This document shows, piece by piece, positions 8,679 through 24,454 of a stretch of DNA of 64,000 bases (position 1 is the stretch's first letter; the number at the start of each line of letters is the position of its first letter). This DNA is from Candidatus Poribacteria bacterium (lineage in GTDB: Bacteria > Poribacteria > WGA-4E > PCPOR2b). The notes under the pieces were generated by a model. The model saw only the letters and a list, made by a program, of their open reading frames with translations. It ran no database searches and was not told the origin of the DNA. The position numbers and the translations under genes were made by a program. The stretch is from NCBI GenBank assembly GCA_965215015.1, contig OZ244042.1:896001-960000 (forward strand), read 5' to 3'.

Positions 8679-8741
8679 CTATTTGCCCTGAAGGTGGCTC
8701 GTGACTAACCAAAGGCAAGCCACGAGAATTGACATACGCAT
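8679..8741 (-). pseudogene. Stub of a seventh TolB-like gene (signal peptide only: MRMSILVACLWLVTSHLQGK*)
   Basis: Same upstream spacer (AAGAAAGAGGGCAACCGGTAAATCGCT-ATG) as the genes starting at 9787 and 18188; homology ends at TAG 8679-8681. Confidence 0.85.
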
Positions 8742-8773
8742 AGCGATTTACCGGTTGCCCTCTTTCTTAAAGG

Positions 8774-9787
8774 TTAAGGAATGGGAGAGACTGGATAGAC
8801 TCCAATCCCTCGGTGATGGGGCGAATTAGACTTAGTCTCCCCCCAACGCTTTGGAACCAGGCCCCGCGGCGCAACCGGCAGCCGAGGATTCCATTCGCGA
8901 GCTGCGAAATCCTTGGCGGGGCTATTGGTCAACTGTATCAATTGACGGTCAGCCAACCGAAAACGATAAATATTTGTAATCCCAATTTTCCCGCCTATCA
9001 GGATAGATTTTCCGTCCGCCCCCCATCCGGAGCCTTGTGCAGCCAATAGGGCACCAGGGGGCAACGTCACTGGCTCAAACTCAATCACTTTACGTTTTGA
9101 CCGATGAAGTGTCGCGATGACCATAGAATACTGATGAGCAACCCCATGGGCAAGCGGCGCCGTGATGACCGTATAGAGAATCTTTTTCCCATCCGGAGAC
9201 CACCCGCCCATACGTATGAACGCCCGGTTGACCGGTTGCGACACCAACCATCGATTCCTGCCATCGGCATTAGCCACATAAATTCCGCCCTCAATCCCGT
9301 TCTCATTCTCGAAGGTCGCTTCAAAAGCAATCCATTTCCCGTCGGGAGACCACTTCGGGGAACTGATAAAGTCTGCTTCTGTTACCAACCGGAGGTTATT
9401 GCCATCGAGGTCTATCGTATAAAGACGACCAATATCTTCGCCGCGCATAAACGCAATCCGTTTCCCGCCGGGGTGCCAATGTGGATGCCCATCATAGGCG
9501 GGATGACGGGTCAGGTTGCGTAGATTACTCCCATCGGCGTCCATCACATAAATGTCGGGGTTGGTTTCGCCATGTCGATAGCTATGGAACGCAATCTGTT
9601 GTCCGTTGGGGGACCAGGTAGGCCAGATATCCATTCCCTCGTTGAATGTGAGCCGTGTTTGGTGCCTCCCATCCGAATTCATCGTATAGATTTCACTATT
9701 CCCATCCCGCTTGGAATAAAACACAATTTTTGCATGAAGGTGGCTCGTGGTCAGCCAAAGACTGACCACGAGAATTGACATACGCAT
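8774..9787 (-). CDS. Secreted TolB/PD40-like beta-propeller protein (T6, subtype 2)
   Basis: Signal peptide; repeated WSPNG/WSPDG-xxIAF and 'IYxMxxDG' motifs; C-terminal PVAPRGLVPKRWGETK tail. Confidence 0.9.
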   Translation of the reverse strand: MRMSILVVSLWLTTSHLHAKIVFYSKRDGNSEIYTMNSDGRHQTRLTFNEGMDIWPTWSPNGQQIAFHSYRHGETNPDIYVMDADGSNLRNLTRHPAYDGHPHWHPGGKRIAFMRGEDIGRLYTIDLDGNNLRLVTEADFISSPKWSPDGKWIAFEATFENENGIEGGIYVANADGRNRWLVSQPVNRAFIRMGGWSPDGKKILYTVITAPLAHGVAHQYSMVIATLHRSKRKVIEFEPVTLPPGALLAAQGSGWGADGKSILIGGKIGITNIYRFRLADRQLIQLTNSPAKDFAAREWNPRLPVAPRGLVPKRWGETKSNSPHHRGIGVYPVSPIP

Positions 9788-9819
9788 AGCGATTTACCGG
9801 TTGCCCTCTTTCTTAAAGG

Positions 9820-10818
9820 TTAAGGAATGGGAGAGACTGGATAGACTCCAATCCCTCGGTGATGGGGCGAATTAGACTTAGTCTCCCCCCAACGCTTTGG
9901 AACCAGGCCCCGCGGCGCAACCGGCAGCCGAGGATTCCATTCGTGTGCTCCGAAATCGGTGGCGGGGCTATCTGTCAATTGTATCAATTGACGGTCAGCC
10001 AACCGAAAACGGTAAATATTTGTAATCCCAATGTTCCCGCCTATCAGGATAGATTTTCCGTCTGCACCCCAACCGAATCCTTGTGCAGCCAATAGGACAC
10101 CAGGGGGCAACGTCACTGGCTCAAACTCAATCACTTTACGTTTTGACCGATGGAGTGTCGCGATGACCATAGAATACTGATGAGCAACCCCATGGGCAAG
10201 CGGCGCCGTGATGACCGTATAGAGAATCTTTTTCCCATCCGGAGACCAGCCACCCAGACGCATTGTTGAACGGGGGACCGGTCTTGATACCAGCCCTCGA
10301 TTAGTGCCATTGACATTAACCACATAAATCTCCCCACCCTCCTGGTCAATGCTCGCTTCAAAAGCAATCCATTTCCCGTCAGGTGACCATTCCAGATCGC
10401 CGATAAAGTCCGCCTCTATTACCAACCGGAGGTTATTGCCATCGAGGTCTATTGTATAAATACGACCGATATCTTCACCACGCAAAAACGCAATCCGTTC
10501 CCCGCCGGGGTGCCATTGAGGGCGCACATCAAAAGCAGGATGACGGGTTAGGTTACGTGGGTTACTTCCATCGGCGTGCATCACATATACCTCAGCGTTC
10601 CCATCACGATAACTATGGAACGCAATTTGTTGACCGTTGGGAGACCAGGTAGGCCACCTATCAGCGGCTTCATTGAATGTGAGCCGTATTGGGTTACTGC
10701 CATCGGAGTCCATCCTGTAGATTTCGAGATTTTCATCCCGTTTGGAATAAAACACGATTTTACCCTGAAGGGGACTCGTGACTAACCAAAGGCAAGCCAC
10801 GAAGACAGATATCCGCAA
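9820..10818 (-). CDS. Secreted TolB/PD40-like beta-propeller protein (T5, subtype 2)
   Basis: TTG start after AAAGGAGG; PD40 repeats; C-terminal part near-identical to T6. Confidence 0.9.
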   Translation of the reverse strand: MRISVFVACLWLVTSPLQGKIVFYSKRDENLEIYRMDSDGSNPIRLTFNEAADRWPTWSPNGQQIAFHSYRDGNAEVYVMHADGSNPRNLTRHPAFDVRPQWHPGGERIAFLRGEDIGRIYTIDLDGNNLRLVIEADFIGDLEWSPDGKWIAFEASIDQEGGEIYVVNVNGTNRGLVSRPVPRSTMRLGGWSPDGKKILYTVITAPLAHGVAHQYSMVIATLHRSKRKVIEFEPVTLPPGVLLAAQGFGWGADGKSILIGGNIGITNIYRFRLADRQLIQLTDSPATDFGAHEWNPRLPVAPRGLVPKRWGETKSNSPHHRGIGVYPVSPIP

Positions 10819-10830
10819 GGTGCACCTCCT

Positions 10831-11364
10831 TTACTCTGTTTCAAACCATATAGACTTTATACTGCGCTTGCCAGCATTGCCTGTAATATTGCTTCCAGTC
10901 TTGACCATATCAATTCGTGTATACGCCTCAATTTCAAATGTGCCTCCCATAATGGGAAGGTCTACACTTGTCCACCCGTACCTACTCAATTCTTGATTAC
11001 CCCGCCTTCTCGATAGGAAGTTAATGTCATCAAGAATTTTATCCGTTTCATTCCAGGTGTTGGTATTATTTTTGACGAAGTGTTTCCACTCCCATTCGCC
11101 GGTGACCGCGACGCTAGTAGTATTTCTAGCAAAGACTCTGTGCCAGCAGTAAGTGGAAACATCGTTCCACTCCAATCTACCAACTTCCACAATCCACTCG
11201 ACACCTTCGTTACTGGTATCGTTTCCATGGACATGGCTATAAATCTCGTGAGGTTGAGTGTCCCCACCGGCAAAAACACCAACAGCAAGAACCAACGCCC
11301 CAGCTGCCGCCAAAACTAATATCCCCAGATACATAGGCTTCGAGTGTTGCTTTGTCCATTTCAT
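10831..11364 (-). CDS. Secreted beta-rich hypothetical protein (A', distant paralogue of A1/A2)
   Basis: AAGGAGG RBS; hydrophobic N-terminus ending VFA; shares WNDxxTYxxH..N..V..WxH and GT[FY]E[IV]ExxTxI with A1. Confidence 0.8.
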   Translation of the reverse strand: MKWTKQHSKPMYLGILVLAAAGALVLAVGVFAGGDTQPHEIYSHVHGNDTSNEGVEWIVEVGRLEWNDVSTYCWHRVFARNTTSVAVTGEWEWKHFVKNNTNTWNETDKILDDINFLSRRRGNQELSRYGWTSVDLPIMGGTFEIEAYTRIDMVKTGSNITGNAGKRSIKSIWFETE

Positions 11365-11460
11365 AATGAACCTCCTTGTGTTAAAACGAGTAAATATGTG
11401 GTTCTCTTTCTCACCAAGCGTTGACGGTGTTGATGACTTGGCTTCACGCTATTTAATTAG

Positions 11461-11477
11461 AGCAAAACCTATGCCAA
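11461..11477 (-). promoter_or_regulatory. Sigma-54 -24/-12 promoter (TTGGCATAGGTTTTGCT)
   Basis: Matches TGGCAy-N5-TTGC, ~100 bp upstream of A'. Confidence 0.8.
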
Positions 11478-11722
11478 CATTGTGAATGCAGTCAACTCTT
11501 CAGACTCGAACTTGCATAGTTGAACACTCAAAATCTCATAGTTCAGTGATTACTACACAACACAACTCACGACGGGGCAACTACAGTCAGACAGCCGGTT
11601 TGTCATAGGGCAATAAATTGCCCAACTACAAACAGAAGGGCGTAACTCCCCATTTATTTTTTTAATTTTCAGTGGAATCTAACCCCATGCCCCTCATTTC
11701 TGACTTTTCCCGTCCTATCACT

Positions 11723-11862
11723 TCGCAGCTTTCTGCGTTTAAATTTGCCTCAAAATCGGCTAAAAGGCAACACATAATCGACGGAAGCCTTGTGGCCACT
11801 GCGTTCCAGCAGGTTCGCAGCTTTCTGCGACGCTAATCCCCCGATATCGCAGCTTTCTGCGA
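11723..11862. promoter_or_regulatory. Putative enhancer-binding-protein UAS: three TCGCAG-N4-CTGCG(A) boxes
   Basis: Boxes start at 11723, 11815 and 11847; the last two are 32 bp apart. Confidence 0.6.
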
Positions 11863-11864
11863 AC

Positions 11865-12082
11865 TTGCGTGGATCGACTTCTCTTGATACCGTATTTATC
11901 CATTTTATATCTCAACGTGGGCTCTGGAATACCGAGATGGTCTGCCGCAGCCTTCTGGTCTGCAGTGCTTTCAAGCGCGTCAATGATTAAAACCCGATCG
12001 TACTCATCAACCAACTCGGTGAGTGCACTGAACCCGGTATCGGATTTTCTAACGGCGTCAATCTGGATATCAGTCCAGATAA
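11865..12082 (-). pseudogene. Copy of response-regulator 3' tail (Fis-type HTH); stop codon mutated to CAA
   Basis: TDIQIDAVRKSDTGFSALTELVDEYDRVLIIDALESTADQKAAADHLGIPEPTLRYKMDKYGIKRSRSTQ matches the C-terminus of the 21926-23320 protein. Confidence 0.8.
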
Positions 12083-12203
12083 CAAGCGTCTGCTGATATG
12101 CTTATGGGGATGAAATAGGGGGAGCAGATGTTGTAGGGCCCAACGATTGTTGAACCCTACAGGGCGGAGTTATCTAGCCTTATAGGCGGGACACATCGCG
12201 TCC

Positions 12204-13185
12204 TTAAGGGCGCAATACGTCAGATTTAATATCGCCCCAGAACAGGGGAAGGAACCACCGGGGCGTAATAAACAAACGGGGATCCCACTCATGGGCGGCA
12301 GTATCCGATCTCGGATTGTCAGTCAACTGTATTAAGACATGGTCTGCCAGACGGAAACGGTAGATATTCGACTGATTAGCCTTCCTACCGGTAAAGAGGA
12401 TGGACCTCCCATCAGCAGAGAAAGATACGGAATGCAAAGGCATCCGTGGCACCGGCACTCGATCCCACTTCTTCACCTTCCTCCGACCAATCGGATCCAG
12501 CGTGGCAATGACCGGAAAGGACTTGGCAACGCTTAAGTCAACTGCCTCCGCATACACAATCTGTTTCCCATTGGGAGACCACCCACCCAAGAACATATGT
12601 GCGCCTTGTCGCGATTGGGACACCTGGAAACGACCCCGGCCATCGGCGTTGACGACAAAAATCTCCCGGCGGCCAGTCCCTCCAAACCCTTCAAAGGCAA
12701 TCCGTTTCCCATCCGGCGACCACTTCGGTCTTGAGGCAAACCACAGGTCTGTGATTTGCTTGACGTTGCGCCCATCGGCATCCATCACGAAAATGTTAAG
12801 ATCCTTATTTTTACCACCGTTGCGACCGCTATTAAACGCAATCTGTGAACCGTCAGGCGACCAGGAGGGATAACCATCAATGCCGGGGTGGTGGGTCAGT
12901 CGCCGTGGATTGCCTCCATCGGCATCCATCACATAAATCTCTGAGTTCCTCTCTTTACCCCTATGCGGGTTCTTATCATCAGCTCGGTAACTATAGAACG
13001 CAATCTGTCGGCCGTTGGGAGACCAGGAGGGGGCAATATCACGCGCCTCGTTGAACGTCAACCGCGTCAGGTCGCTACCGTCAGAGTCCATCTTGTAGAT
13101 TTCCAGGTTTCCAGCTCGACTAGAATAAAACACAATTTTGCCCCAAAGGGGGCTCGTGGCAAGCCACGAGAATTGACATACGCAT
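12204..13185 (-). pseudogene. TolB/PD40-like beta-propeller (T4, subtype 1), frameshifted by an 11-nt deletion in the signal-peptide codons
   Basis: From the canonical ATG 13185 it reads MRMSILVACHEPPLGQNCVLF*; one TGGCTTGCC-NN unit is missing relative to T1/T3. The rest of the gene is intact; the track's GTG at 13199 overlaps the RBS. Confidence 0.75.
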
Positions 13186-13198
13186 AACGACACCTCCA

Positions 13199-13708
13199 CT
13201 ATTCTTCTGGGATATCAACGTGGCTCACATGTCTAGCAGTTGTCCAACTCGCTGTTTTAAACCCGTTACCATTCTCAAACTTAATTTGAGTGGTGCTCAC
13301 AAGTGGATGAAAGCCGGAGGGTATCCCCCCAGGGGTATGGGTGTTCAAATATCCCTGAACGAAATATGTATCACCCGCGCGTATTTTCGGTCGTCGATCC
13401 GAGTCGTTCTGCTCCTCGACTAAAATCTGGTCTGTGAGAACGATGTTCCCGTGTGTGAATTTACGTGTCCACTTATAGGTAAGTTTCACCCACGTGTTGG
13501 AGTTGTTTTCTATATCCATGTAATGGTGGCTATAGGTGTCCGTGTCATTCCACCAATGAGCACCGGCACCAATTTCATAGTCTACACTCTTCCAGGTGCC
13601 ATCGACTATATCTGTCACAAGATGATTTGCATAACCTGTCACCACGCCAATCAATAGAGCTGCTAGAGCGGTGAGAACCGTTGCCTTGAAACGACGTGAA
13701 CTTAACAT
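13199..13708 (-). CDS. Secreted beta-rich hypothetical protein (A2)
   Basis: AGGAGA RBS before MLSSRRFKATVLTALAALLIGVVTGYA; near-identical to A1. Confidence 0.85.
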   Translation of the reverse strand: MLSSRRFKATVLTALAALLIGVVTGYANHLVTDIVDGTWKSVDYEIGAGAHWWNDTDTYSHHYMDIENNSNTWVKLTYKWTRKFTHGNIVLTDQILVEEQNDSDRRPKIRAGDTYFVQGYLNTHTPGGIPSGFHPLVSTTQIKFENGNGFKTASWTTARHVSHVDIPEE

Positions 13709-13859
13709 GATGAAATCTCCTCTGATTGGTGATGAATGCTTTGGCATTCCGTTGGGTGAGAACCATCAACTTTGAGTTGATTCACATATCCAATGGATAT
13801 GTAGTTCTCTTTTTCACCAAGTGTTGACAGTGTTGATGACTTGGCTTCACGCTATTTAA

Positions 13860-13876
13860 AGCAAGACCTATGCCAA
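13860..13876 (-). promoter_or_regulatory. Sigma-54 -24/-12 promoter (TTGGCATAGGTCTTGCT)
   Basis: Matches consensus; identical to the copy at 21509. Confidence 0.8.
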
Positions 13877-14118
13877 CATTGTGAATGCGGTCAACGCTTC
13901 AGACTCGAACCTACCTCGTTGAACACTCAAAGCCTTGTAGTTGGGGAATTCAACACGGCACCACTCACGACGGGGCAACTACAGTCAGACAGCCGGTTTG
14001 TCATAGGGCAACAAATTGCCCGACTACAAACGGAAGGGCATAACTCCTCATTTATTCTTAATTTTCAGTGGAATCTAACCCTATCCCTCTCATTTCTGAC
14101 TTTTCCCGTCCGGTAACT

Positions 14119-14258
14119 TCGCAGCTTTCTGCGTTTAAATTTGTCTCAAAATCGGCTAAAAGGCAACACATAATCGATGGAAGCCTTGTGGACACTGCGT
14201 TCCAGCAGGTTCGCAGCTTTCTGCGACGCCAATCCCCCGATATCGCAGATTTCTGCGA
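14119..14258. promoter_or_regulatory. Putative UAS: three TCGCAG-N4-CTGCG(A) boxes
   Basis: Boxes start at 14119, 14211 and 14243. Confidence 0.6.
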
Positions 14259-14260
14259 AC

Positions 14261-14480
14261 TTATGTGGATCGACTTCTCTTGATACCGTATTTATCCATT
14301 TTATATCTCAACGTGGGCTCAGGAACACCGAGCGGGTCTGCCGCAGTCTTCTAGTCTCCAGTGTTTTCAAGCGCGTCAAGGATTAAAATCCGCTCGTATT
14401 CCTTAACCCATCCGGTGAGTGTGCTGGGCCCGGTATCGGATTTTCTAACGGCGTCAATCTGGATATCAGTCCAGATAACA
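14261..14480 (-). pseudogene. Copy of response-regulator 3' tail (Fis-type HTH) with internal stop
   Basis: TDIQIDAVRKSDTGPSTLTGWVKEYERILILDALENTGD*...PEPTLRYKMDKYGIKRSRST*. Confidence 0.8.
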
Positions 14481-14606
14481 ATAGCCAGTTGATATGCTTG
14501 TGGGGATGAAAGTCGAAGGGGTGAACATAAAACGGCATTTAAAGGCGACAATCCAAAAGCGTTGAGGTTTTTATCTCAGCAAGAAAGGGGGCGTCAATGT
14601 AAGGAT

Positions 14607-14649
14607 AAAAAAGCGGTATCATACCCGTGAAAAATGGTGTGACACCGCT
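14607..14649 (-). terminator. Rho-independent terminator after the lipoprotein triplet
   Basis: AGCGGTGTCACACC...GGTATGATACCGCT followed by a T run on the minus strand. Confidence 0.7.
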
Positions 14650-14677
14650 AAGTCCTGTTGGCATTGTAACTTCTATA

Positions 14678-15196
14678 TTAGTTCGATAAGAATTCATGTA
14701 TGTCTATACCCACTTCCTTAACATCAACGATTTTTATCCCTTCTGGGATTTCCCCGTTATTGAGTTGATCCATAATCGTATCGCCATCATTCTCACCAGA
14801 GGTCACAACGTGATGAGCAGACCGATATATTGTACCGTCCGGTTTTTCATGCTCGTCCCAGTAGACATAGGCGACCCCCGGATATTTAGGAAAGAATATC
14901 CCATTTCTACAATGGGCACCAATAAAATTGTGATCACCACTCTTCCATAGTTTAATCTCTGCCCGATTCAGTAATACCATATTTTCAAAAATAGTCTTAG
15001 GTATTTGCAATTTTTCTTCCTCAGGCAGCAGCCAAGCTACTGGAAATGGATAATCATCGGGTACTTCTGGGTAGTTGCGGGATTCTTCCTTCATACGCAA
15101 CTCAATTTCGTCCTGCCCCAACCTCGCGCAGCCCCACATCAGGGGCAAAACGGCGGTTACCATGCAGACGATAAACACGCCTTGGAGATATTTCAT
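14678..15196 (-). CDS. Hypothetical lipoprotein (L2)
   Basis: Lipobox-like LMWG-C; shares YPEVPxDYP, KLWxxGDHxFxG, YPxVAYVxW, PDGTIY and MDQLNNGExPxGI with its neighbours. Confidence 0.8.
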   Translation of the reverse strand: MKYLQGVFIVCMVTAVLPLMWGCARLGQDEIELRMKEESRNYPEVPDDYPFPVAWLLPEEEKLQIPKTIFENMVLLNRAEIKLWKSGDHNFIGAHCRNGIFFPKYPGVAYVYWDEHEKPDGTIYRSAHHVVTSGENDGDTIMDQLNNGEIPEGIKIVDVKEVGIDIHEFLSN

Positions 15197-15210
15197 ATTT
15201 TTCACCCTCC

Positions 15211-15720
15211 TCATTTTGATAAGAATTCGTATGGATCTATCCCCGCCGATTTATAGTCAACGATTTTTATCCCTTCTGGGGTTTCCCCATTATTGAGTTG
15301 ATCCATGATGGCACTGCTATCATTCCTACTCGTGGTCAGAACGTTACCAGCATACCGGTATATTGTGCCATCGGGTGCTTCCCGCTCGTCCCATTCGACA
15401 TAAGCGACATCGGGGTAGAGCGGGAAGAATAGTCCGTTTGAAATAACGCCGCCAGTAAAATCGTGGTCGCCTTCACTCCATAGCTTCACCATAGCCATAC
15501 TTAACAACTCCATTTGTCCAACGTCCTCCGGTGCAATCTTTACTCGCTCATCTTCGGATCGCTGCCAATAGACCTTATATGGATAGTCCTCGGGCACTTC
15601 GGGATACTCAAAGCCGGTGATCGACCGCCCTGCTTTTGACCCCAATATAGCGCATCCCCATATCATGGACAAAGCGAAAGGTACCATGTAGACGATAAGA
15701 ACCCACCGATGAGATTTCAT
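15211..15720 (-). CDS. Hypothetical lipoprotein (L1)
   Basis: MKSHRW...MIWG-C lipobox-like N-terminus; paralogue of L2 and L0. Confidence 0.8.
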   Translation of the reverse strand: MKSHRWVLIVYMVPFALSMIWGCAILGSKAGRSITGFEYPEVPEDYPYKVYWQRSEDERVKIAPEDVGQMELLSMAMVKLWSEGDHDFTGGVISNGLFFPLYPDVAYVEWDEREAPDGTIYRYAGNVLTTSRNDSSAIMDQLNNGETPEGIKIVDYKSAGIDPYEFLSK

Positions 15721-15731
15721 GTGTCCCCCTT

Positions 15732-16238
15732 TCACCTTGATAACAATTGGTATGGATCTATCCCCGCCGATTGATAATCGACAATCCGAATTCCTGATGG
15801 AGTTTCTCCATTATTGAGTTGATCCATAATCTTACTACTGTCATTTCCACCGCCTGTCAGAACATTGCTAGCATACCAATATATTGTGCCATCTGGCTCT
15901 TCGCTCTGTTCCCATTCGACATAGGCAACATCCGGGTAGAGCGGGTAGAATGCTCCATTTGTAATAACACCGCCGGTAAAATCGTGGTCGCCTTCACTCC
16001 ATAGCTTCACCATAGCCATACTTAATAGTTCCTGTGCTTCAAGACGATCCGGTGGTATCCCCGCCCGTTCTGCTTCAGAGCGTAACCAAATTGGTGTAAA
16101 TGGATAGTCAGCCGGCACTGGTGGATACTCGTTGGTTTCCTCCTCCGCATCTGCAAGGGGTTCGGGGGTAGACATAAAAGCATCTGTTGACAAAGCATCG
16201 AAGTCATCCGATCTGATGTTTATTCGGGCCATGGACAA
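15732..16238 (-). CDS. Lipoprotein-family paralogue (L0) lacking an N-terminal signal; possibly 5'-truncated
   Basis: Same conserved blocks as L1/L2; overlaps the upstream 78-aa ORF in a different frame. Confidence 0.6.
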   Translation of the reverse strand: MSMARINIRSDDFDALSTDAFMSTPEPLADAEEETNEYPPVPADYPFTPIWLRSEAERAGIPPDRLEAQELLSMAMVKLWSEGDHDFTGGVITNGAFYPLYPDVAYVEWEQSEEPDGTIYWYASNVLTGGGNDSSKIMDQLNNGETPSGIRIVDYQSAGIDPYQLLSR

Positions 16239-16799: not shown

Positions 16800-16939
16800 T
16801 CGCAGCTTTTTGCGTTTAAATTTGCCTCAAAATCGGCTTAACAGCAACACATAATCGCTGAAAGCCTTGTGGACACTGCGTTCCAGCAGGTTCGCAGCTT
16901 TCTGCGACGCCAATCCCCCGATATCGCAGCTTTCTGCGA
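16800..16939. promoter_or_regulatory. Putative UAS: three TCGCAG-N4-CTGCG(A) boxes (first degenerate)
   Basis: Boxes start at 16800, 16892 and 16924. Confidence 0.55.
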
Positions 16940-16941
16940 AC

Positions 16942-17080
16942 TTACGTGGATTGGCTGCTTTTGATACCATCGCGTCAAGGATTAAAATCCGCTCGTATTC
17001 CTTAACCAATCCGGTGAGTGTACTGGGCCCGGTATCGGATTTTCTAGCGGCGTCAATCTGGATATCAGTCTAGATAACAA
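16942..17080 (-). pseudogene. Internally deleted copy of response-regulator 3' tail
   Basis: LVKEYERILILDA is joined directly to the last codons; HTH core missing. Confidence 0.7.
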
Positions 17081-17198
17081 GCGTCTGCTGATATGCTTGT
17101 GGGGATGAAATAGGGGAACAGATGTTGTAGGGTCCAACAATTGTTGAACCCTACAGGGCGGAGTTATCCCAGCCTTATAGGCGGGACACATCGCGTTC

Positions 17199-18188
17199 TT
17201 AAGGGCGCAATACGTCAGATTTAATATCGCCCCAGAACAGGGGAAGGAACCACCGGGGCGTAATAAACAAACGGGGATCCCACTCATGGGCGGCAGTATC
17301 CGATCTCGGATTGTCAGTCAACTGTATTAAGGTATGGTCTGCCAGACGGAAACGGTAGATATTCGACTGATTAGCCTTCCTACCAGTAAAGAGGATGGAC
17401 CTCCCATCAGCAGAGAAAGATACGGAATGCAAAGGCATCCGTGGCACCGGCACTCGATCCCACTTCTTCACCTTCCTGCGACCAATCGGATCCAGCGTGG
17501 CAATGACCGGAAAGGACTTGGCAACGCTTAAGTCAACTGCCTCCGCATACACAATCTGTTTCCCAGTGGGAGACCACCCACCCAAGAACATATGCGCGCC
17601 TTGTCGCGATTGGGACACCTGGAAACGACCCCTGCCATCGGCGTTGACGACAAAAATCTCCCGGCCAGTCCCTGCAAACCCTTCAAAGGCAATCCGTTTC
17701 CCATCCGACGACCACTTCGGTCTTGAGGCAAACCCCAGGTCTGTGATTTGCTTGATGTTGCTCCCATCGGCATCCATCACGAAAATGTTGATATCCTTAT
17801 TTTTACCACCGTTGCGACCGCTATCAAACGCAATCTGTGAACCGTCAGGCGACCAGGAAGGATAACCATCAGTGATGGGGTGGTGGGTTAGTCGCCGTGG
17901 ATTGCCTCCATCGGCATCCATCACATAAATCTCTGAGTTCCTCTCTTTACCCCTATGCAGGTTCTTATCATCAGCCCGGTAACTATGGAACGCAATCTGT
18001 CGGCCGTTGGGAGACCAGGAGGGGGCAATATCATGCGCCTCATTGAACGTCAACCGCGTCAGATCGCTACCGTCAGAGTCCATCTTGTAGATTTCCAGGT
18101 TTCCAGCCCGACTGGAATGAAACACAATTTTGCCCCAAAGGGGGCTCGTGGCAAGCCAGAGGCAAGCCACGAGAATTGACATACGCAT
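17199..18188 (-). CDS. Secreted TolB/PD40-like beta-propeller protein (T3, subtype 1)
   Basis: MRMSILVACLWLATSPLWGK signal; PD40 repeats; FWGDIKS tail. Confidence 0.9.
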   Translation of the reverse strand: MRMSILVACLWLATSPLWGKIVFHSSRAGNLEIYKMDSDGSDLTRLTFNEAHDIAPSWSPNGRQIAFHSYRADDKNLHRGKERNSEIYVMDADGGNPRRLTHHPITDGYPSWSPDGSQIAFDSGRNGGKNKDINIFVMDADGSNIKQITDLGFASRPKWSSDGKRIAFEGFAGTGREIFVVNADGRGRFQVSQSRQGAHMFLGGWSPTGKQIVYAEAVDLSVAKSFPVIATLDPIGRRKVKKWDRVPVPRMPLHSVSFSADGRSILFTGRKANQSNIYRFRLADHTLIQLTDNPRSDTAAHEWDPRLFITPRWFLPLFWGDIKSDVLRP

Positions 18189-18256: not shown

Positions 18257-19219
18257 TCAGTGATGGTGCGAGTTAGACTTAATCTCCCCCCAATGCTTTG
18301 GAACCAGTCCCTGCGGTGCAACTGGCAGCCGAGGATTCCATTCGTGTGCTCCGAAATCGGTGGCAAGGCTATCTGTCAACTGTATCAGTTGACGATCAGC
18401 CAACCGAAAACGGTAAATATTCCAAATGCCAATCTTCGCTGCTATGAGGATAGATTTTCCGTCTGCACCCCACCCCAAACCTCGCACAACCAATAGGGGA
18501 TTGGGAGGTAGTCTTACCGTCTCAAACTCAATCACTTTACGTTTTGACCGATGAAGTGTAGCGATGACCATAGAATACTGATGAGCAACCCCATGGGCAA
18601 GCGGCGCCGTGATGACCGTATAGAGAATCTTTTTCCCATCCGGAGACCAGCCACCCAGACGCATTGTTGAACGGGGGACCGGTCTTGATACTAGCCCTCG
18701 ATTAGTGCCATTGACATTAACCACATAAATCTCCCCACCCTCCTGGTCAATGCTCGCTTCAAAAGCAATCCATTTCCCGTCAGGTGACCATTCCAGGTCG
18801 CCGATAAAGTCTGCCTCTATTACCAACCGGAGGTTATTGCCATCGAGGTCTATTGTATAAATACGACCGATATCTTCACCACGCAAAAACGCAATCTGTT
18901 TCCCGTCGGGGTGCCATTGAGGGCGTACATCAAAAGCAGGATGACGGGTTAGGTTACGTGGGTTACTTCCATCGGCGTCCATCAGATATACCTCAGCGTT
19001 CCCATCACGATAACTATGGAACGCAATTTGTTGACCGTTGGGAGCCCAGGTAGGCCACCTATCAGCGGCTTCATTGAATGTGAGCCGTATTGGGTTACTG
19101 CCATCGGAGTCCATCCTGTAGATTTCGAGATTTTCATCCCGTTTGGAATAAAACACGATTTTACCCTGAAGGGGACTCGTGGCAAGCCAGAGGCAAGCCA
19201 CGAGAATTGACATACGCAT
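18257..19219 (-). CDS. Secreted TolB/PD40-like beta-propeller protein (T2, subtype 2)
   Basis: ATG 19219; near-identical to T5 up to VIEFE; CGA->TGA shortens the tail by 12 aa relative to T5/T6. Confidence 0.9.
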   Translation of the reverse strand: MRMSILVACLWLATSPLQGKIVFYSKRDENLEIYRMDSDGSNPIRLTFNEAADRWPTWAPNGQQIAFHSYRDGNAEVYLMDADGSNPRNLTRHPAFDVRPQWHPDGKQIAFLRGEDIGRIYTIDLDGNNLRLVIEADFIGDLEWSPDGKWIAFEASIDQEGGEIYVVNVNGTNRGLVSRPVPRSTMRLGGWSPDGKKILYTVITAPLAHGVAHQYSMVIATLHRSKRKVIEFETVRLPPNPLLVVRGLGWGADGKSILIAAKIGIWNIYRFRLADRQLIQLTDSLATDFGAHEWNPRLPVAPQGLVPKHWGEIKSNSHHH

Positions 19220-19229
19220 AACGACACCT

Positions 19230-19419
19230 CTACTCTTCTGGGACTTCAACGTTACTCACATATCTAGCAGTTGTCCAACTCGCTGTTTTATAAACCCGTT
19301 ACCATTCTCAAACTTAATTTGGGTAGTGCTCTCAACCTTATATGTGCCGGGGCGTATCCCTCCAGGGGTATGGGTGTTCAAATACCCCTGAACGAAATAT
19401 ATATCACCCGCACGTATTA
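19230..19419 (-). pseudogene. 3' fragment of secreted protein A, with a frameshift
   Basis: ..RAGDIYFVQGYLNTHTPGGIRPGTYKVESTTQIKFENGNGF.. matches A1; the 5' part and promoter are deleted. Confidence 0.8.
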
Positions 19420-19524
19420 CGGAAGGGCATAACTCCTCATTTATTCTTAATTTGAGTAAAATCTAACCCCATTCCTCTCATTTCTTACTTTTCCTGTCCT
19501 GTAAGTTCGCAGCTTTCTGTGAAC

Positions 19525-19740
19525 TTACGTGGATCGGCTGCTCTTGATACTGTATTTATCCATTTTATATCTCAACGTGGGCTCAGGAACCCCGAGATGG
19601 TATGCCGCAGCCTTTTGGTCTCCAGTGCTTTCAAGCGCGTCAAAGATTAAAATCCGCTCGTATTCCTTAAGCAATCCGGTGAGCCCTTTGTTTTCAGGAT
19701 CGAATTTGCCAGGGGTGCCTGGATATCAGTCCAGATAACA
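19525..19740 (-). pseudogene. Copy of response-regulator 3' tail (Fis-type HTH)
   Basis: GKFDPENKGLTGLLKEYERILIFDALESTGDQKAAAYHLGVPEPTLRYKMDKYSIKSSRST*. Confidence 0.8.
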
Positions 19741-19844
19741 ATCTTCTGCTGATATGCTTGTGGGGATGAAATAGGGGAGCAGATGTTGTAGGGTTCAACG
19801 ATTGTTGAACCCTACGGGCAGAGTTATCCCAGCCTTTCGCGTCC

Positions 19845-20837
19845 TTAAGGGCCCAATACGTCAGATTTAATATCGCCCCAGAACAGGGGAAGGAACCACC
19901 GGGGCGTAATAAACAAACGGGGATCCCATTCATGGGCGGCAATATCCGATCCCGGATTATCGGTCAACTGTATTAAGGTATGGTCTGCCAGACGGAAACG
20001 GTAGATATTCGACTGATTAGCCTTCCTACCAGTAAAGAGGATGGACCTCCCATCGACAGAGAAAGATTCAGAATATATCTGCAGCATCCGTGGCACCGGC
20101 ACTCGGTCCCACTTCTTCACCTTCCTTCGTCCTGCTAGATTCAGCGTGGCAATGACAGGAAAGGACTTGGCAATGCTTGAGCCAACCGCGTCCGCATACA
20201 CAATCTGTTTCCCATTGGGAGACCACCCACCCAAGAACATATGCGCGCCTCGTCGCGATTGGGACACCTGGAAACGCCCCCTCCCATCGGCGTTGACGAC
20301 AAGAATCTCCCGGTTAGCCCCTATAAACCCTTCAAAGGCAATCCGTTTCCCATCCGGCGACCACTTCGGTCTTGAGGCAAATCCCATGTTTGTGATTTGC
20401 TTGACGTTGCTCCCATCAGCATCCATCACGAAAATGTTGATATCCTTATTTTTACCACCGTTGCGATCGCTACTAAACGCAATCTGATTTCCGTCGGGAT
20501 GCCAATCTGCATAGTTATCGAGTCCGGGGTGGTGGGTCAGTCGCCGTGGATTGCCTCCATCGGCATCCATCACATAAATCTCTGAGTTCCTCTCTTTACC
20601 CCTATGCAGGTTCTTATCATCAGCCCGGTAACTATGGAACGCAATCTGTCGGCCGTTGGGAGACCAGGAGGGGGCAATATCATGCGCCTCATTGAACGTC
20701 AACCGCGTCAGATCGCTACCGTCAGAGTCCATCTTGTAGATTTCCAGGTTTCCAACCCGATTGGAATAAAATACAATTTTGCCCCAAAGGGGGCTCGTGG
20801 CAAGCCAAAGGCAAGCCACGAGAATTGACATACGCAT
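19845..20837 (-). CDS. Secreted TolB/PD40-like beta-propeller protein (T1, subtype 1)
   Basis: ATG 20837 after GGAGG; PD40 repeats; FWGDIKS tail. Confidence 0.9.
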   Translation of the reverse strand: MRMSILVACLWLATSPLWGKIVFYSNRVGNLEIYKMDSDGSDLTRLTFNEAHDIAPSWSPNGRQIAFHSYRADDKNLHRGKERNSEIYVMDADGGNPRRLTHHPGLDNYADWHPDGNQIAFSSDRNGGKNKDINIFVMDADGSNVKQITNMGFASRPKWSPDGKRIAFEGFIGANREILVVNADGRGRFQVSQSRRGAHMFLGGWSPNGKQIVYADAVGSSIAKSFPVIATLNLAGRRKVKKWDRVPVPRMLQIYSESFSVDGRSILFTGRKANQSNIYRFRLADHTLIQLTDNPGSDIAAHEWDPRLFITPRWFLPLFWGDIKSDVLGP

Positions 20838-20850
20838 AGCGACACCTCCA

Positions 20851-21357
20851 CTATTCTGGGACTTCAACGTTGCTCACATATCTAGCAGTTGTCCAACTCG
20901 CTGTTTTAAACCCGTTACCATTCTCAAACTTAATTTGAGTGGTGCTCTCAACCTCATATGTGCCGGGGCGTATCCCCCCAGGGGTATGGGTGTTTAAATA
21001 CCCCTGAACGAAATATGTATCACCCGCGCGTATTTTCGGTCGTCGATCCGAGTCGTTCTGCTCCTCGATTAAAATCTGGTCTGTGAGAACGATGTTCCCG
21101 TATGTGAATTTATGTGTCCACTTATAGGTAAGTTTCACCCACGTGTTGGAGTTGTTTTCTATATCCATGTAATGGTGGCTATAGGTGTCCGTGTCATTCC
21201 ACCAATGAGCCCCGGCACCAATTTCATAGTCTACACTCTTCCAGGTGCCCTCGACTATATCTGTCACAAGATGATTTGCATAACCTGCGACCACGCCAAT
21301 CAATAGAGCTGCTAGAGCGGTGAGAACTGTTGCCTTGAAACGACGTGAACTTAACAT
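20851..21357 (-). CDS. Secreted beta-rich hypothetical protein (A1)
   Basis: AGGAGA RBS; signal peptide ending GYA; first gene after the sigma-54 promoter. Confidence 0.85.
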   Translation of the reverse strand: MLSSRRFKATVLTALAALLIGVVAGYANHLVTDIVEGTWKSVDYEIGAGAHWWNDTDTYSHHYMDIENNSNTWVKLTYKWTHKFTYGNIVLTDQILIEEQNDSDRRPKIRAGDTYFVQGYLNTHTPGGIRPGTYEVESTTQIKFENGNGFKTASWTTARYVSNVEVPE

Positions 21358-21508
21358 GATGAAATCTCCTTTGATTGGTGAGGAATGCTTTGGCATTCCG
21401 TTGGGTGAGAACTATCAACTTTGAGTTGATTCACATATCCGATGGATATGTGGTTCTCTTTTTCACCAAGTGTTGACAGTGTTGATGACTTGGCTTCACG
21501 CTATTTAG

Positions 21509-21525
21509 AGCAAGACCTATGCCAA
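21509..21525 (-). promoter_or_regulatory. Sigma-54 -24/-12 promoter (TTGGCATAGGTCTTGCT)
   Basis: Consensus match directly downstream of a GAFTGA-containing activator gene. Confidence 0.85.
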
Positions 21526-21670
21526 CATTGTGAATGCGGTCAACTCTTCAGACTCGAACGTACGGAATTGAACACTCAAAATCTCATAGTTCAGTGATTC
21601 ATCACCGCACCATACAACTCACGACGTCCGATGAATCGGGCGATTACAGTCAGACAGCCGGTTTGTCATA

Positions 21671-21695
21671 GGGCAATAAATTGCCCGACTACAAA
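21671..21695. repeat. GTAG-type REP-like palindrome GGGCAATAAATTGCCCGACTACAAA (copies near 11608, 14006, 16687)
   Basis: Palindrome followed by CTAC; related elements outside the array near 31765-31790 and 57684-57708. Confidence 0.6.
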
Positions 21696-21783
21696 CAGAA
21701 GGGCGTAACTTCTCATTTATTCTTAATTTTCAGTGGAATCTAACCCCATCCCTCTCATTTCTGACTTTTCCCGTCCTGTCACT

Positions 21784-21923
21784 TCGCAGCTTTCTGCGTT
21801 TAAATTTGCCTCAAAATCGGCTAAAAGGCAACACATAATCGCTGGAAGCCTTGTGGCCACTGCGTTCCAGCAGGTTCGCAGCTTTCTGCGACGCCAATCC
21901 CCCGATATCGCAGCTTTCTGCGA
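21784..21923. promoter_or_regulatory. Putative UAS of the adjacent activator: three TCGCAG-CTTT-CTGCG(A) boxes
   Basis: Boxes start at 21784, 21876 and 21908; the last pair is 32 bp apart; ~260-400 bp upstream of the sigma-54 site. Confidence 0.65.
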
Positions 21924-21925
21924 AC

Positions 21926-23320
21926 TTACGTGGATCGACTTCTCTTGATACCGTATTTATCCATTTTATATCTCAACGTGGGCTCTGGAATACCGAGATG
22001 GTCTGCCGCAGCCTTCTGGTCTCCAGCACTTTCAAGCGCGTCAATGATTAAAATCCGCTCGTATTCCGTAACCAATCCGGTGAGCCCTTTGTTTTCAGGA
22101 TCGAATTTGCCAGCGACCTCAATCTGGAGGTCAGTGGTAGAAATCCAATCACTTCTGGCTAACACCACTGCCTGCTCGATACGATTTTCCAGTTCACGGA
22201 CGTTCCCCGGCCATGAGTATCTCATTAAGAACGTCATTGCTGCCTCCTGAAAGCCTCTGATTTGTTTGCCATCGGTTAGATGCGATTTTTGAGTGAGAAA
22301 GTGAGTGGCAAGTAGTGGTATATCGGATTTGCGCTCGCGTAACGGAGGAACGTGTAATGGAAAAACGTTGAGTCGATAGTAGAGATCCTCTCGAAATGTA
22401 CCCTCCTGGACTGCCTGCTCCAGATTTTTATTTGTCGCTGCAATCACTCGGACGTCCACTTCAATGGTCTGCTTCCCGCCGAGCCGTTCAAGCTGTCTTT
22501 CCTGCAAGACGCGCAGGAACTTTACTTGAGATTCCGCATCGAGTTCAGCAATTTCATCGAGGAAGATGGTGCCGCGGTTCGCACTCTCAAATTTTCCTTG
22601 CTTTCGCTCTGTTGCGCCGGTGAATGCTCCCCGCTCATGTCCAAAGAGTTCGCTGCCGAGAAGGGCATTCTCTGTTTGCCCGCAGGCAACCGTAACAAAG
22701 GGCTGACTGACTCTGGGACTGTGATGGTGAATGGCTTGGGCGATAAGTTCTTTTCCTGTTCCGCTTTCGCCTTGGACGAGAACGGTTGTGTCCGTCGAAG
22801 CGAGGCGGTCTATCTGCTCAAACAGGCGGCGCATGCGCTCGGAATCTCCAACGATGATTTTGTCGGGACCATAGCGATACCCTTTGATACGGTCAATTTC
22901 GGATTGTTGCAGGTCTGCAATTCGGCGTTCCAACAGCAACCTCTCATAAGCCTGATTGACCCGAAAGGGGAGTTCGCTGTAGCCTTGCGTTCTCTTTTCA
23001 ATGAAATCATAGGCACCCAACTTGTGGGCTCTCATGGCGTTTTCTATGCTCCCCTCGACGGTAACGATAATCACTTTGATGGCAGGGTTATACGCCGTAA
23101 TCTCCTTTAGAAACGTAAGCCCTTCTTCACTATCTTGGCGTTGCAATCTCAAATCGAGAATGACTATGTCCGGTTGGAACGCTTGCAGTTGATGAGAAGC
23201 AGTTGAGGTATCCGTTGCTGTCTCAATCCGATATCGTAGTGGAAGCAACTTCGCGCTATACACCTTTGTGTAGATTTCTTCGTCCTCGACGATAAGGATT
23301 TTTCCCGGTTTATCTGACAT
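21926..23320 (-). CDS. Sigma-54-dependent NtrC/AtoC-family response regulator
   Basis: Receiver domain (ILIVEDE, DIVILD), Walker A GESGTGKE, GAFTGA, FLDEI, WPGNVRELEN, C-terminal Fis HTH; ATG 23320 after GGAGG. Confidence 0.97.
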   Translation of the reverse strand: MSDKPGKILIVEDEEIYTKVYSAKLLPLRYRIETATDTSTASHQLQAFQPDIVILDLRLQRQDSEEGLTFLKEITAYNPAIKVIIVTVEGSIENAMRAHKLGAYDFIEKRTQGYSELPFRVNQAYERLLLERRIADLQQSEIDRIKGYRYGPDKIIVGDSERMRRLFEQIDRLASTDTTVLVQGESGTGKELIAQAIHHHSPRVSQPFVTVACGQTENALLGSELFGHERGAFTGATERKQGKFESANRGTIFLDEIAELDAESQVKFLRVLQERQLERLGGKQTIEVDVRVIAATNKNLEQAVQEGTFREDLYYRLNVFPLHVPPLRERKSDIPLLATHFLTQKSHLTDGKQIRGFQEAAMTFLMRYSWPGNVRELENRIEQAVVLARSDWISTTDLQIEVAGKFDPENKGLTGLVTEYERILIIDALESAGDQKAAADHLGIPEPTLRYKMDKYGIKRSRST

Positions 23321-23389
23321 GATTTCGCCTCCAGTAGTTTTGGGTAGGTCTTGTACCTGACCAAAACAGGGTAACCACAAGGGTTACCC

Positions 23390-24454
23390 TTACAGTATTA
23401 ATACATCTCGTTGTTGTCGGAGTAAAAAGATTGGCAACTCTACATAGATGGTTGTTCCAAGGTCAGGTTTTGACAAAACATCAATCTGTCCGTGGTGTTC
23501 GTTGATAATTTGCTGTGCAATCCACATGCCTAACCCGGTGCCGCCTCTATCTTTTTTCGTCGAATACAGCGGCTTAAAGATGTTTTGCAACGCTTCCGCG
23601 CTAATACCGCAGCCGGTGTCTTGTATATCAATTCGGATGGTATCAAGCACCCGGGCCATTCGGAGGGTAAGTGTGCCCCCGGTCTCCTCCATCGCCTCAC
23701 ACGCATTAATAACGAGATTCTCAAATGCCATCCGCAGCTTGTCCACATCTCCATGAATGTGGGGGACCACTTCGTACTGTCTACTCAGCGTGATTTTATG
23801 TTCCCAATCCGGATTTCTTTGCAGCGTTTCGTGCAGCAAAACTTCAATCTCAAGACGAAGATCAAAAACCCGAAATTCAGGTTGTATCGTTGCCTCAAGC
23901 AATTGATTGACCGTCTGACGTGTGTGATTCACCTGTTTTTTGATCTCTCGGGTGAATTTGCTCGTGGCGTCTTTAGAATGCCTCCCCGCAGGCGTTGTCT
24001 CCGCTAGCATCATCAAATTTTCCGAACAGGCTTCAATGATTGCCAGCGGATTTTTAACGGCATGAGCGAGACTACGAAGCGTATTGGCGTTGCTCTCCGC
24101 CTGTTCACGGGCACTATGTTCCTGTTGCAACATTTCTTCACGTAATCGCTGTGCTTCACGGTGCTTGGTATAGTAACGCCGGATAACAACAACAAACAGA
24201 ACGAGACATCCCACAATCGCCAACGCGGAAGGAATGGCAATCCAACCGTTGAGATACCAGTGCGACATAACTTTCAAGTGCCTGTTTGCAGCTTGGACAA
24301 CCACTGCGACACGAGGAGTTGTGTGATTAGAGACCGGTATAAAGACGGTACTGACGATGCCAATTGGATTTCCCTGCGATTGGGCGGCTGCGTCCCGCAC
24401 TTCGCTTGAAAGTAAAAGCCCGATTAATAGGAACCGTGACAATGCAGGTTTCAT
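23390..24454 (-). CDS. Membrane sensor histidine kinase
   Basis: H-box LAHAVKNPL, N-box ENLVINA, G1 DTGCGI, G2 GTGLG; signal peptide plus one TM; very short extracytoplasmic part. Confidence 0.95.
   Translation of the reverse strand: MKPALSRFLLIGLLLSSEVRDAAAQSQGNPIGIVSTVFIPVSNHTTPRVAVVVQAANRHLKVMSHWYLNGWIAIPSALAIVGCLVLFVVVIRRYYTKHREAQRLREEMLQQEHSAREQAESNANTLRSLAHAVKNPLAIIEACSENLMMLAETTPAGRHSKDATSKFTREIKKQVNHTRQTVNQLLEATIQPEFRVFDLRLEIEVLLHETLQRNPDWEHKITLSRQYEVVPHIHGDVDKLRMAFENLVINACEAMEETGGTLTLRMARVLDTIRIDIQDTGCGISAEALQNIFKPLYSTKKDRGGTGLGMWIAQQIINEHHGQIDVLSKPDLGTTIYVELPIFLLRQQRDVLIL

Follow-up and report, generated by a model that had tools for sequence, protein, structure and literature searches.

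The locus

The stretch of DNA analysed here, called the window, comprises 64,000 nucleotides (nt; positions 896001-960000) of the 5.94 Mb single-contig genome of a Candidatus Poribacteria bacterium (labelled G000; labels G003-G022 denote the genomes of relatives). Within it, a two-component system is followed on the minus strand by five homologous enhancer-promoter modules, each standing before a block of genes (Table 1). Poribacteria are uncultivated, dominant symbionts of sponges, and a role in interaction with the host is suspected for their expanded families of repeat proteins, which include PD40.

The two-component system consists of a sensor histidine kinase (HK) and an NtrC-type response regulator, or bacterial enhancer-binding protein (RR), whose gene begins 9 nt after that of the kinase. 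The N terminus of the kinase has two hydrophobic segments and a short external loop in translation. All features by which the NtrC family is recognized can be found in the regulator, namely a receiver (Response_reg, 4.8e-19), an AAA+ domain (Sigma54_activat, 1.1e-71) with GESGTGKE and GAFTGA legible in the translation, and a Fis-type helix-turn-helix (HTH; HTH_8, 6e-11). Orthologs of the regulator with 82-85% identity occur in 13 of 40 other genomes searched, and the kinase adjoins it in the 12 relatives whose loci were fetched as well. The G000 genome also contains two rpoN-like genes (Sigma54_DBD).

Downstream of the regulator, the five modules can be aligned over 0.6-0.95 kb. What the original prediction, made from sequence alone, had proposed is confirmed: a two-component system is accompanied by five copies of its own enhancer/promoter module, and every element listed is found on the minus strand in the sequence given. 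In a full module, a 3' piece of the regulator gene (the RR tail) is followed by three palindromic boxes, a short dispersed repeat (D20), a REP-like repeat and a promoter, the last being intact in modules 1, 4 and 5. The predicted unit of RR tail, boxes and REP holds, with tails of 69-82 codons matched by tblastn in modules 2, 4 and 5; the three boxes claimed for each unit do not hold for module 2, which has one. Module 1 is followed by A1 and T1, module 2 by an A fragment, T2 and T3, module 3 by sf, L0, L1 and L2, module 4 by A2 and T4, and module 5 by A', T5, T6 and a T stub. As had also been predicted, this cargo differs between copies and looks exported, being judged so on inspection by signal peptide, lipobox or membrane anchor.

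Table 1 Features of the array and its flanks (window positions)
Feature	Positions	Strand	Evidence and remarks
HK, sensor histidine kinase	23390-24505	-	Pfam HisKA and HATPase_c; translation
RR, NtrC-type response regulator, 484 amino acids (aa)	21926-23380	-	Pfam, motifs
Module 1 (original)	21397-21925	-	boxes 21908-21923, 21876-21891, 21785-21798; promoter 21509-21524; D20, REP-like repeats; ~113-nt leader
A1, 181 aa	20851-21396	-	N-terminal membrane helix and 7-strand beta-sandwich; no Pfam family
T1, PD40 beta-propeller with signal peptide, subfamily Ta	19845-20837	-	Pfam PD40 4.9e-35; tree
Module 2 (eroded)	19463-19844	-	RR tail ~19528-19755; single box 19508-19521; no promoter
A fragment, 3' third of A1-type gene, frameshifted	19236-19462	-	tblastn; translation
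T2, PD40, subfamily Tb	18257-19219	-	Pfam, alignment, tree
T3, PD40, subfamily Ta	17199-18188	-	93% aa identity to T4
Module 3	16441-17198	-	boxes 16925-16938, 16893-16906, 16801-16814 (1 mismatch); two D20; broken promoter from 16599
sf, truncated small membrane/secreted protein gene	16204-16440	-	78 aa vs 125-131 aa in relatives
L0	15732-16238	-	lipoprotein-family paralog, without signal peptide
L1	15211-15735	-	lipoprotein, lipobox WGC; no Pfam family
L2	14678-15214	-	lipoprotein, lipobox WGC; no Pfam family
Module 4	13748-14677	-	RR tail ~14264-14500; boxes 14244-14257 (1 mismatch), 14212-14225, 14120-14133; REP; promoter 13860-13875
A2	13199-13747	-	91% aa identity to A1
T4, PD40 (Ta)	12204-13199	-	start overlaps A2 stop by 1 nt
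Module 5	11365-12203	-	RR tail ~11868-12074; boxes 11848-11861, 11816-11829, 11724-11737; promoter 11461-11476
A', divergent A-family protein	10831-11364	-	30% aa identity to A1; 51% to RR-proximal A' of G017
T5, PD40 (Tb)	9820-10818	-	alignment, tree
T6, PD40 (Tb)	8774-9787	-	alignment, tree
T stub, first 20 codons of T gene then stop	8679-8741	-	reads MRMSILVACLWLVTSHLQGK*
Giant TPR and Laminin_G_3 protein, >2858 aa, continues beyond window edge	3-8576	-	Pfam; conserved right flank
HSP20	24983-25429	+	Pfam; conserved left flank, divergent from HK
HtrA/DegP-type protease	25519-27099	+	Pfam; conserved left flank
YhgA/Rpn-like Transposase_31 gene	29293-30393	-	Pfam; ~5 kb beyond HK

Boxes and promoters as predicted regulatory sites

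The boxes are palindromes of the TCGC-N8-GCGA type (pattern CGCAGAAAGCTGCG, 16-mer TCGCAGAAAGCTGCGA) with spacings of 32 and 92 nt. Allowing up to 2 mismatches, the pattern matches 13 times in the window (3, 1, 3, 3 and 3 across modules 1-5), against 0.36 matches expected by chance, and 0 of 100 shuffles reached 13. Of the 19 sites in the genome that read CGCAG-N4-CTGCG, 14 fall in six modules, the sixth being a distant copy described below. Modules 1 and 3-6 share 93-97% identity over the 129-nt segment that holds the boxes. Outside it, identity is 73-97% in the tail and 65-87% downstream of D20 (modules 1, 4, 5 and 6), and neighbouring segments reach 92%.

The same sites can be found in relatives. 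At all 13 RR loci compared (12 relatives and G000) the regulator gene is followed by boxes of the TCGC-N8-GCGA type. Strict matches number 2-4 in 11 genomes, while G003 and G017 have one apiece and a further near-match. The start of the first box falls between 18 nt inside the end of the RR open reading frame (ORF) and ~16 nt beyond it. Box and regulator also vary together: an HTH helix reading TLRYKM goes with TCGCAG..CTGCGA boxes (8 genomes) and one reading TLRRKM with TCGCC..GGCGA (5 genomes), a pairing consistent in 13 of 13. As the genomes are kin, this covariation probably goes back to no more than one or two independent changes. Among genomes of the genus, module DNA occurs in exactly the 12 with an RR ortholog and in 0 of 7 without one; such co-occurrence is partly trivial, one module lying at the gene end, and the dispersed copies obey the same rule. 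With their dyads, fixed spacing, enrichment, conservation above that of the flanks and covariation with the HTH, the boxes are, on sequence evidence, putative regulator sites.

Three strict sigma-54 promoters (TGGCATAGGTCTTGCT / TGGCATAGGTTTTGCT) occupy 21524-21509, 13875-13860 and 11476-11461, exactly where three intact ones had been predicted (21509, 13860 and 11461). Modules 1, 4 and 5 carry TGGCATAGGT(C/T)TTGCT, i.e. TGGCAT-N5-TTGCT, with the GG at -24 and the GC at -12 that define this promoter class. Genome-wide there are 52 strict matches vs ~17 expected from base composition. Taken as a prediction from sequence and comparison, the reading that a single kinase-regulator pair acts through several copies of its enhancer and sigma-54 promoter is well supported.

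Layout and decay of the modules

An RR tail is present in every module because the enhancer abuts or overlaps the end of the regulator gene (box 1 of module 1 begins 3 nt past the RR stop codon), so that a duplication capturing the whole enhancer takes a piece of the gene along. The tails read as pseudogene pieces, decaying passengers of the enhancer. That of module 2 retains 89-91% identity to the live gene and is cut and frameshifted, and a 124-nt deletion between the boxes (spanning boxes 1 to 3) has cost this module boxes 1 and 2, leaving one. In the case of module 3, DNA alignment reveals a 79-nt internal deletion of the tail, for which tblastn gives no match, while modules 4 and 6 have an in-frame TAG in common. 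The tail of module 5 reads as a conversion mosaic: identity to the live RR is 73% over the 5' half but 97% over the 3' half. Its stop codon is now CAA and an 84-aa ORF is kept there alone. The idea that the tails serve as small HTH proteins or decoys can be ruled out by the TAG of modules 4 and 6, the 79-nt deletion in module 3 and the survival of an ORF solely in module 5.

In module 3 the enhancer part is the common one, but the promoter is of another type, which is widespread in the genus. By comparison with its orthologs, this promoter is broken, not absent. The -24 half is kept (TTTGGCATG, from 16599), while the -12 half reads TTGGG vs TTGCC in orthologs. At this site the module reads TGGCATGAACTTGGGA where orthologous sf promoters have TGGCA(C/T)GGTAA(C/T)TGCC, the GC at -12 having been lost (GG instead). 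Insertion of a repeat into this promoter is one possible cause, but comparison with G009 fits replacement or deletion equally well.

Between enhancer and promoter, every module has D20 and the REP-like repeat. D20 forms a hairpin (GGGCAAT-TT-ATTGCCC) and occurs in 6 copies in the region, with 9 further matches in the genome; the REP-like repeat (21555-21730 in the window) has 40 matches elsewhere in the genome. It is at D20 that different promoter types meet the enhancer, and D20 may be a recombination hotspot. Between promoter and A lies a leader of ~113 nt, whose copies in modules 1 and 4 (21397-21508 vs 13748-13859) have 97% identity. The same leader recurs with 86% identity at a locus near 4.947 Mb (L094 ~11413-11530) and contains three short hairpins, e.g. 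CACATATCC-ATC-GGATATGTG; it may be a conserved regulatory leader. Rfam gave 0 matches in the 17.5 kb region at E <= 0.1, so the hairpin-rich A leader has no known family there. A terminator scan found none convincing after the T genes (21 sites vs 15.5 expected, several being the boxes themselves).

Modules outside the array

A sixth module is located at genome positions 5668677-5669451, 4.75 Mb away. It is 80-88% identical to the others, has a tail, three boxes and TGGCATGGGTCTTGCT, and fronts a 125-aa ORF and an L-like protein. Relatives also have modules beyond the RR locus (five in G005, two in G003, one each in G007 and G017, and a partial match in G008), those in G007 and G017 bearing the other box type. 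In all ten dispersed modules examined, 2-3 boxes are followed 150-430 nt downstream by a strict sigma-54 promoter, and in 9 of the 10 a T, A or L family gene is among the first ORFs downstream, the exception being one in G005 (G005d).

G000 contains a second sigma-54 array at 4938-4949 kb (L094), which has a receiver-less activator of 316 aa and its own palindromes of the TGTGCGA-N-TCGCACA type. There, at 4.947 Mb, the promoter TGGCATGGGTCTTGCT, the leader and the start of A are together 86% identical to module 1 and are followed by one A and seven tandem T genes. Finding a module 1-like promoter behind a different activator and different boxes implies that the enhancer part and the promoter-cargo part are separable.

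Variation among relatives and strains

The gene order around the array is conserved: an ABC transporter, HtrA and HSP20, then, divergently, HK, RR, the variable region and the giant TPR/LamG gene. Measured from the regulator stop to the start of the TPR gene in 11 genomes including G000, the length of that region is 0.25 kb in G008, 1.5 kb in G022, 3.4 kb in G014, 3.6 kb in G011, 6.6 kb in G017, 6.9 kb in G005, 7.7 kb in G010, 9.5 kb in G007, 11.3 kb in G015, 13.2 kb in G009 and 13.35 kb in G000. Left out were G003, where no TPR gene lies within the 18 kb fetched, G013, where the contig end was reached, and G006, which was not fetched. With conserved genes on both sides, the RR-to-TPR region forms a hypervariable island.

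In relatives, the number of modules in tandem is 1-3 (three in G003, two in G015) and that of dispersed modules reaches 5, the genes behind them belonging mostly to the T, A or L families. The island reads sf-L-L-L, tail, A-T in G009, A'-T and then sf-L-L in G017, and sf-L-L-L-T in G007. The length of RR tail in the repeats also varies, from ~215 nt in G000 through ~150 in G015 and ~125 in G009 to ~16-25 in G005 and G003. A comparison of the locus across relatives, which the original prediction had proposed, thus reveals differences in copy number, order and cargo between genomes and between strains; an architecture fixed and identical in all relatives is clearly not what is found.

Strain variation can be seen in independent assembled contigs from Logan. 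These are broken at repeats, and most joints had sides of fewer than 31 letters and were left unused. In a 695-nt contig of a related strain (run X5), T5 is missing and T6 is joined directly to the end of A'. A related-strain contig also has 967 extra letters at 16200/16212, the junction of sf and L0, and this difference explains both the short sf and an L0 without signal peptide. What had been described as a secreted fragment is therefore present and is actually a truncated sf gene.

Origin of the array

We consider it probable that this array is the hub of a sigma-54 regulon for exported proteins that was enlarged by segmental duplication and homologous recombination. This account takes as observed the sequence architecture, its conservation, the comparative variation and the mosaicism; from these we infer regulator binding, promoter activity, a signal and RecA-type recombination as the engine. 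A membrane kinase would sense an envelope or external cue and phosphorylate the NtrC-type regulator, which would bind the TCGC-N8-GCGA boxes, three per module, and from ~260-385 nt upstream activate sigma-54 RNA polymerase at TGGCAT-N5-TTGCT. Several exported-protein operons (T with its partner gene A; L) would be switched on jointly in this way. The RR-proximal unit of enhancer, promoter and operon would have been duplicated in repeated tandem segmental events, with the dragged-along RR 3' piece decaying afterwards as a pseudogene. Unequal crossing-over, deletions and gene conversion between modules of 0.5-0.8 kb and between T genes could then have led to reshuffling, erosion and re-pairing, the outcome being the island between RR and the conserved giant TPR gene.

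The marks of tandem segmental duplication can be found in the array. Modules 2, 3 and 5 have one common upstream junction, which is 92-93% identical among them. The extra modules of G000 are closest to its own RR-proximal module (88-91%), those of G003 likewise being closest to their own, and the T genes form within-genome clades (T1/T3/T4 and T2/T5/T6, support 100/100 and 87/99). Local amplification, as originally predicted, is borne out to this extent; the idea of a purely local array is not, homologous modules being dispersed both here and in relatives.

Several observations weigh against this account, or ask for more than duplication in place. The second module of G009 is 95% identical to the RR ends of G007 and G005, and that of G015 94% identical to that of G013, their own RR ends being less alike. 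Purely in-place duplication leaves these modules unexplained, since they are more like the modules of other species; they suggest inter-lineage exchange or replacement of the resident RR end. Modules are also far more alike than cargo, with 95% identity between modules 1 and 5 as against 43% nt and 30% aa identity between A1 and A', so whole-unit duplication cannot have been the sole process and conversion or module replacement is needed. The covariation of box and HTH may be a reflection of a single phylogenetic split. Modules 2 and 3 have no canonical promoter, so some of the array may be silent or transcribed by read-through. Finally, short-read contigs cannot span the repeats, so the order of the array rests on a single-contig assembly.

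Alternative accounts of the array

Some of these observations lend themselves to another explanation, in which the module is a portable cassette that needs no recombinase. The RR tail and boxes, ~0.3-0.5 kb of DNA that is the best conserved in the island and lies on both sides of each cargo block, would act as homology arms flanking the cargo. Entire blocks would be inserted, deleted or swapped by homologous recombination, also between co-resident species, and new exported-protein operons would be recruited into the regulon of one signal. Module and cargo do have discordant histories, as the original prediction of swapped cargo implied, both for modules 1 and 5 and in G005, where modules are 71-88% identical and cargo 44-67%. 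One enhancer part is found with two promoter parts and at least 4 cargo types, and at 4.947 Mb a beta-type promoter, leader and A-T unit stand behind a different activator and boxes. The second modules of G009 and G015, with their likeness to RR-proximal DNA of other species, the dispersed modules with the other box type in G007 and G017, and the conserved genes flanking the island also fit. Plain duplication, however, predicts what is seen in G000 and G003, where extra modules are nearest to the module of their own genome, and selection on the enhancer together with gene conversion could alone keep modules similar as cargo diverges. No transfer event was caught directly, and the boundaries of the repeated unit vary between lineages (RR tail ~16 to ~215 nt). 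We regard a portable cassette as an unlikely account of this array. A broader proposal is a little less so and is best called doubtful: in Poribacteria, enhancer-promoter modules with an RR tail would form a recombinase-free, self-wiring cassette system, in which homologous recombination, also across species that live together, could add, remove or exchange any block between two modules, each newcomer being placed at once under the same kinase signal. The idea of portable, self-wiring homology arms is nonetheless attractive. If true, the exported PD40, beta-sandwich and lipoprotein families at the interface of symbiont and sponge would make up a rapidly reshuffled repertoire under the control of one host or envelope cue.

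A programmed contingency or antigenic-variation system would require more, namely a dedicated mechanism that rearranges cassettes at high frequency and so varies the surface repertoire within a population. The array is repeat-rich, its products look exported and it varies between strains and species; PD40 proteins are, moreover, among the 'eukaryotic-like proteins' that the available excerpts of PMC9531527 describe as enriched in sponge microbiomes. Yet a Pfam scan found no recombinase or integrase domain in the 19 array ORFs or in 5 flanking ORFs (attC sites were not searched for), in agreement with the original remark that no recombinase gene is present in the array. There are no fixed recombination sites, repeat boundaries differing between lineages, and 3 of 5 units have their own promoter, so the layout is not that of one expression site with silent cassettes and shuffling would not switch expression. 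T genes are under purifying selection (ratio of nonsynonymous to synonymous divergence, dN/dS, 0.22-0.59 in 15 of 15 pairs), and the dS of 0.07-0.54 between paralogs within subfamilies reflects an evolutionary, not a population, time scale. These points, together with the decaying tails, speak against the special diversification system that had been suggested, and programming of this kind is very improbable. The array looks to have been built by ordinary duplication and recombination, with no dedicated shuffling machine.

A module that moves as a transposon of the MITE type (miniature inverted-repeat transposable element) is disfavoured by a left boundary that varies over 16-215 nt of RR tail, a search aimed at terminal repeats or target duplications not having been made. 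An assembly artefact, in which strain variants of one A-T unit were strung in tandem, might be feared in a metagenome-assembled genome with units 85-95% alike and short-read contigs that break at every repeat, but it is hardly credible given unit-specific junctions at 99-100% identity in independent runs (X1 10751-11594 and 14452-16713; X6 20813-21544), contig depths that equal or exceed those of the flanks instead of being fractions of them (8.7-16.5 vs 9.5-11.5 in X1; weak evidence, with one depth figure per contig), units that differ in cargo (A', sf-L) and in state of decay, and multi-module arrays in the assemblies of three other species.

Relation to known systems

Two-component systems of the NtrC family that act on sigma-54 promoters through upstream activating sequences include NtrBC with glnAp2, DctBD with dctA, and ZraSR. 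The present locus resembles them in pairing a kinase with a regulator of receiver, AAA+ (GAFTGA) and HTH_8 domains, in having multiple palindromic sites 100-400 nt upstream of a GG-N10-GC promoter, and in the adjacency of target operon and regulator gene. It differs in that the whole enhancer-promoter is found in five tandem copies and one distant copy, each with a pseudogenised piece of the regulator, and in that the predicted targets are exported-protein families of an uncultivated symbiont.

In the classical model of tandem gene amplification, unequal crossing-over is followed by divergence. Direct repeats with one novel junction, within-genome clustering, a copy number that varies between strains and the lack of need for a dedicated enzyme are all in keeping with that model. 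Here, in contrast, the boundary of the unit lies inside the regulator gene, so that every copy brings its own enhancer, and units have been re-paired with unrelated cargo and dispersed. Cassette islands based on flanking homology, such as the 'minimal mobile elements' of Neisseria and capsule or O-antigen loci, offer a second comparison. As in these, conserved flanks (RR and the giant TPR gene) enclose content that differs between relatives, there are no mobility genes inside, and exchange by homologous recombination is plausible. Unlike in these, the homology is also internal, with a module before every block, and it is the regulatory element itself, so inserted cargo would join the same signal.

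Integrons and antigenic-variation cassette loci, for instance Mycoplasma vsa/vsp and Neisseria pilS, share with the array the principle of swappable units for surface or exported proteins. No integrase domain was found in the array, however, and hence no IntI of the kind that stands beside an integron array; nor was an invertase domain found or a single expression site with silent cassettes, the units having their own promoters. The T proteins, PD40 propellers with signal peptides from a heavily expanded family, are similar to the PD40 or TolB-like 'eukaryotic-like proteins' of sponge symbionts. As far as the available excerpts go, PMC9531527 counts PD40 among the 'eukaryotic-like' domains enriched in sponge microbiomes and PMC3909097 discusses Poribacteria repeat proteins, and those excerpts contain no mention of regulation, sigma-54 or the present array.

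The original prediction knew of no described system with this architecture, and full-text literature searches on Poribacteria, PD40, sigma-54 and enhancer duplication found no description of one. On the control of Poribacteria PD40-type families, nothing was found in the searchable literature. The locus offers a testable handle on regulation: a single kinase-regulator pair, together with a 16-nt box and sigma-54 promoters, both defined, in front of dozens of such genes across the genus. It is also a natural example of a regulon that grows by copying a whole cis-regulatory module instead of evolving new sites, and the pseudogenised regulator tail is a built-in marker of each copying event.

Cargo proteins

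All six T genes are complete ORFs encoding proteins of ~330 aa with a signal-peptide-like N terminus and PD40 matches of 2e-22 to 6e-41. Only PD40 and related propeller models were matched; identification as TolB proper was ruled out, there being no match to the TolB N-terminal domain (no TolB_N in the Pfam lists) and the A-T context not being that of tol-pal. Subfamilies Ta and Tb share ~50% aa identity with dS > 1.3, an old split. In the genome as a whole the family yields 74 matches. Near-full-length copies account for 31 of these, and most stand in tandem arrays; 2 have an in-frame stop, and for 16 of the 31 a strict sigma-54 promoter can be found upstream on the same strand within 9 kb. 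After the propeller, the C termini of all T paralogs (e.g. 8774-8900 and 12204-12300) contain a conserved EW(N/D)PRL...P...WG(E/D)(I/T)KS, which may be a sorting or anchoring signal.

A and T genes are adjacent, overlapping or abutting, at at least 6 loci in the G000 genome; prediction of an A-T complex gave a score of 0.00, which allows no call either way. A structure model of A1 (pLDDT 78.9) has a long N-terminal helix and a 7-strand beta-sandwich, for which the fold matches were of the generic Ig-like/ApaG type alone (TM < 0.5). A word-based homolog search with A returned 6 proteins only, and the best ESM Atlas scores, 0.80 for A and 0.82 for L, fall under any useful level. In the case of L1, a confident model (pLDDT 82.6, core > 90) found no Foldseek match at E <= 0.001 (all E > 0.1) and a best Z of 2.9 among solved structures in the wide VIA comparison. 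The L family, as modelled, is a possible orphan fold restricted to Poribacteria, a missing match being no proof of a new fold. Its members share the motifs YPxVPxDYP and DGT at loci in the window (14678-16238), in L093 (8266-9039) and in L107 (1179-1919).

Neighbouring genes

The HSP20 and HtrA/DegP genes beside the kinase are syntenic in 10 of 11 upstream loci of relatives, and their presence hints at an envelope or protein-stress context for the two-component system. The Transposase_31 gene, the closest one to the array with a link to recombination, is 1 of 8 in the genome; it is outside the island and adjoins the conserved ABC transporter. On the other flank, of the 12 downstream loci of relatives, 11 contain the giant TPR gene after the RR locus, a count in which the locus of G013 stops 3.7 kb in and G003 has none within the 18 kb fetched. 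In G008, the regulator boxes lie just 250 nt upstream of the ortholog of this gene. The giant TPR protein may be an ancestral or additional target of the regulator. In several relatives the gene is present in two or three tandem copies.

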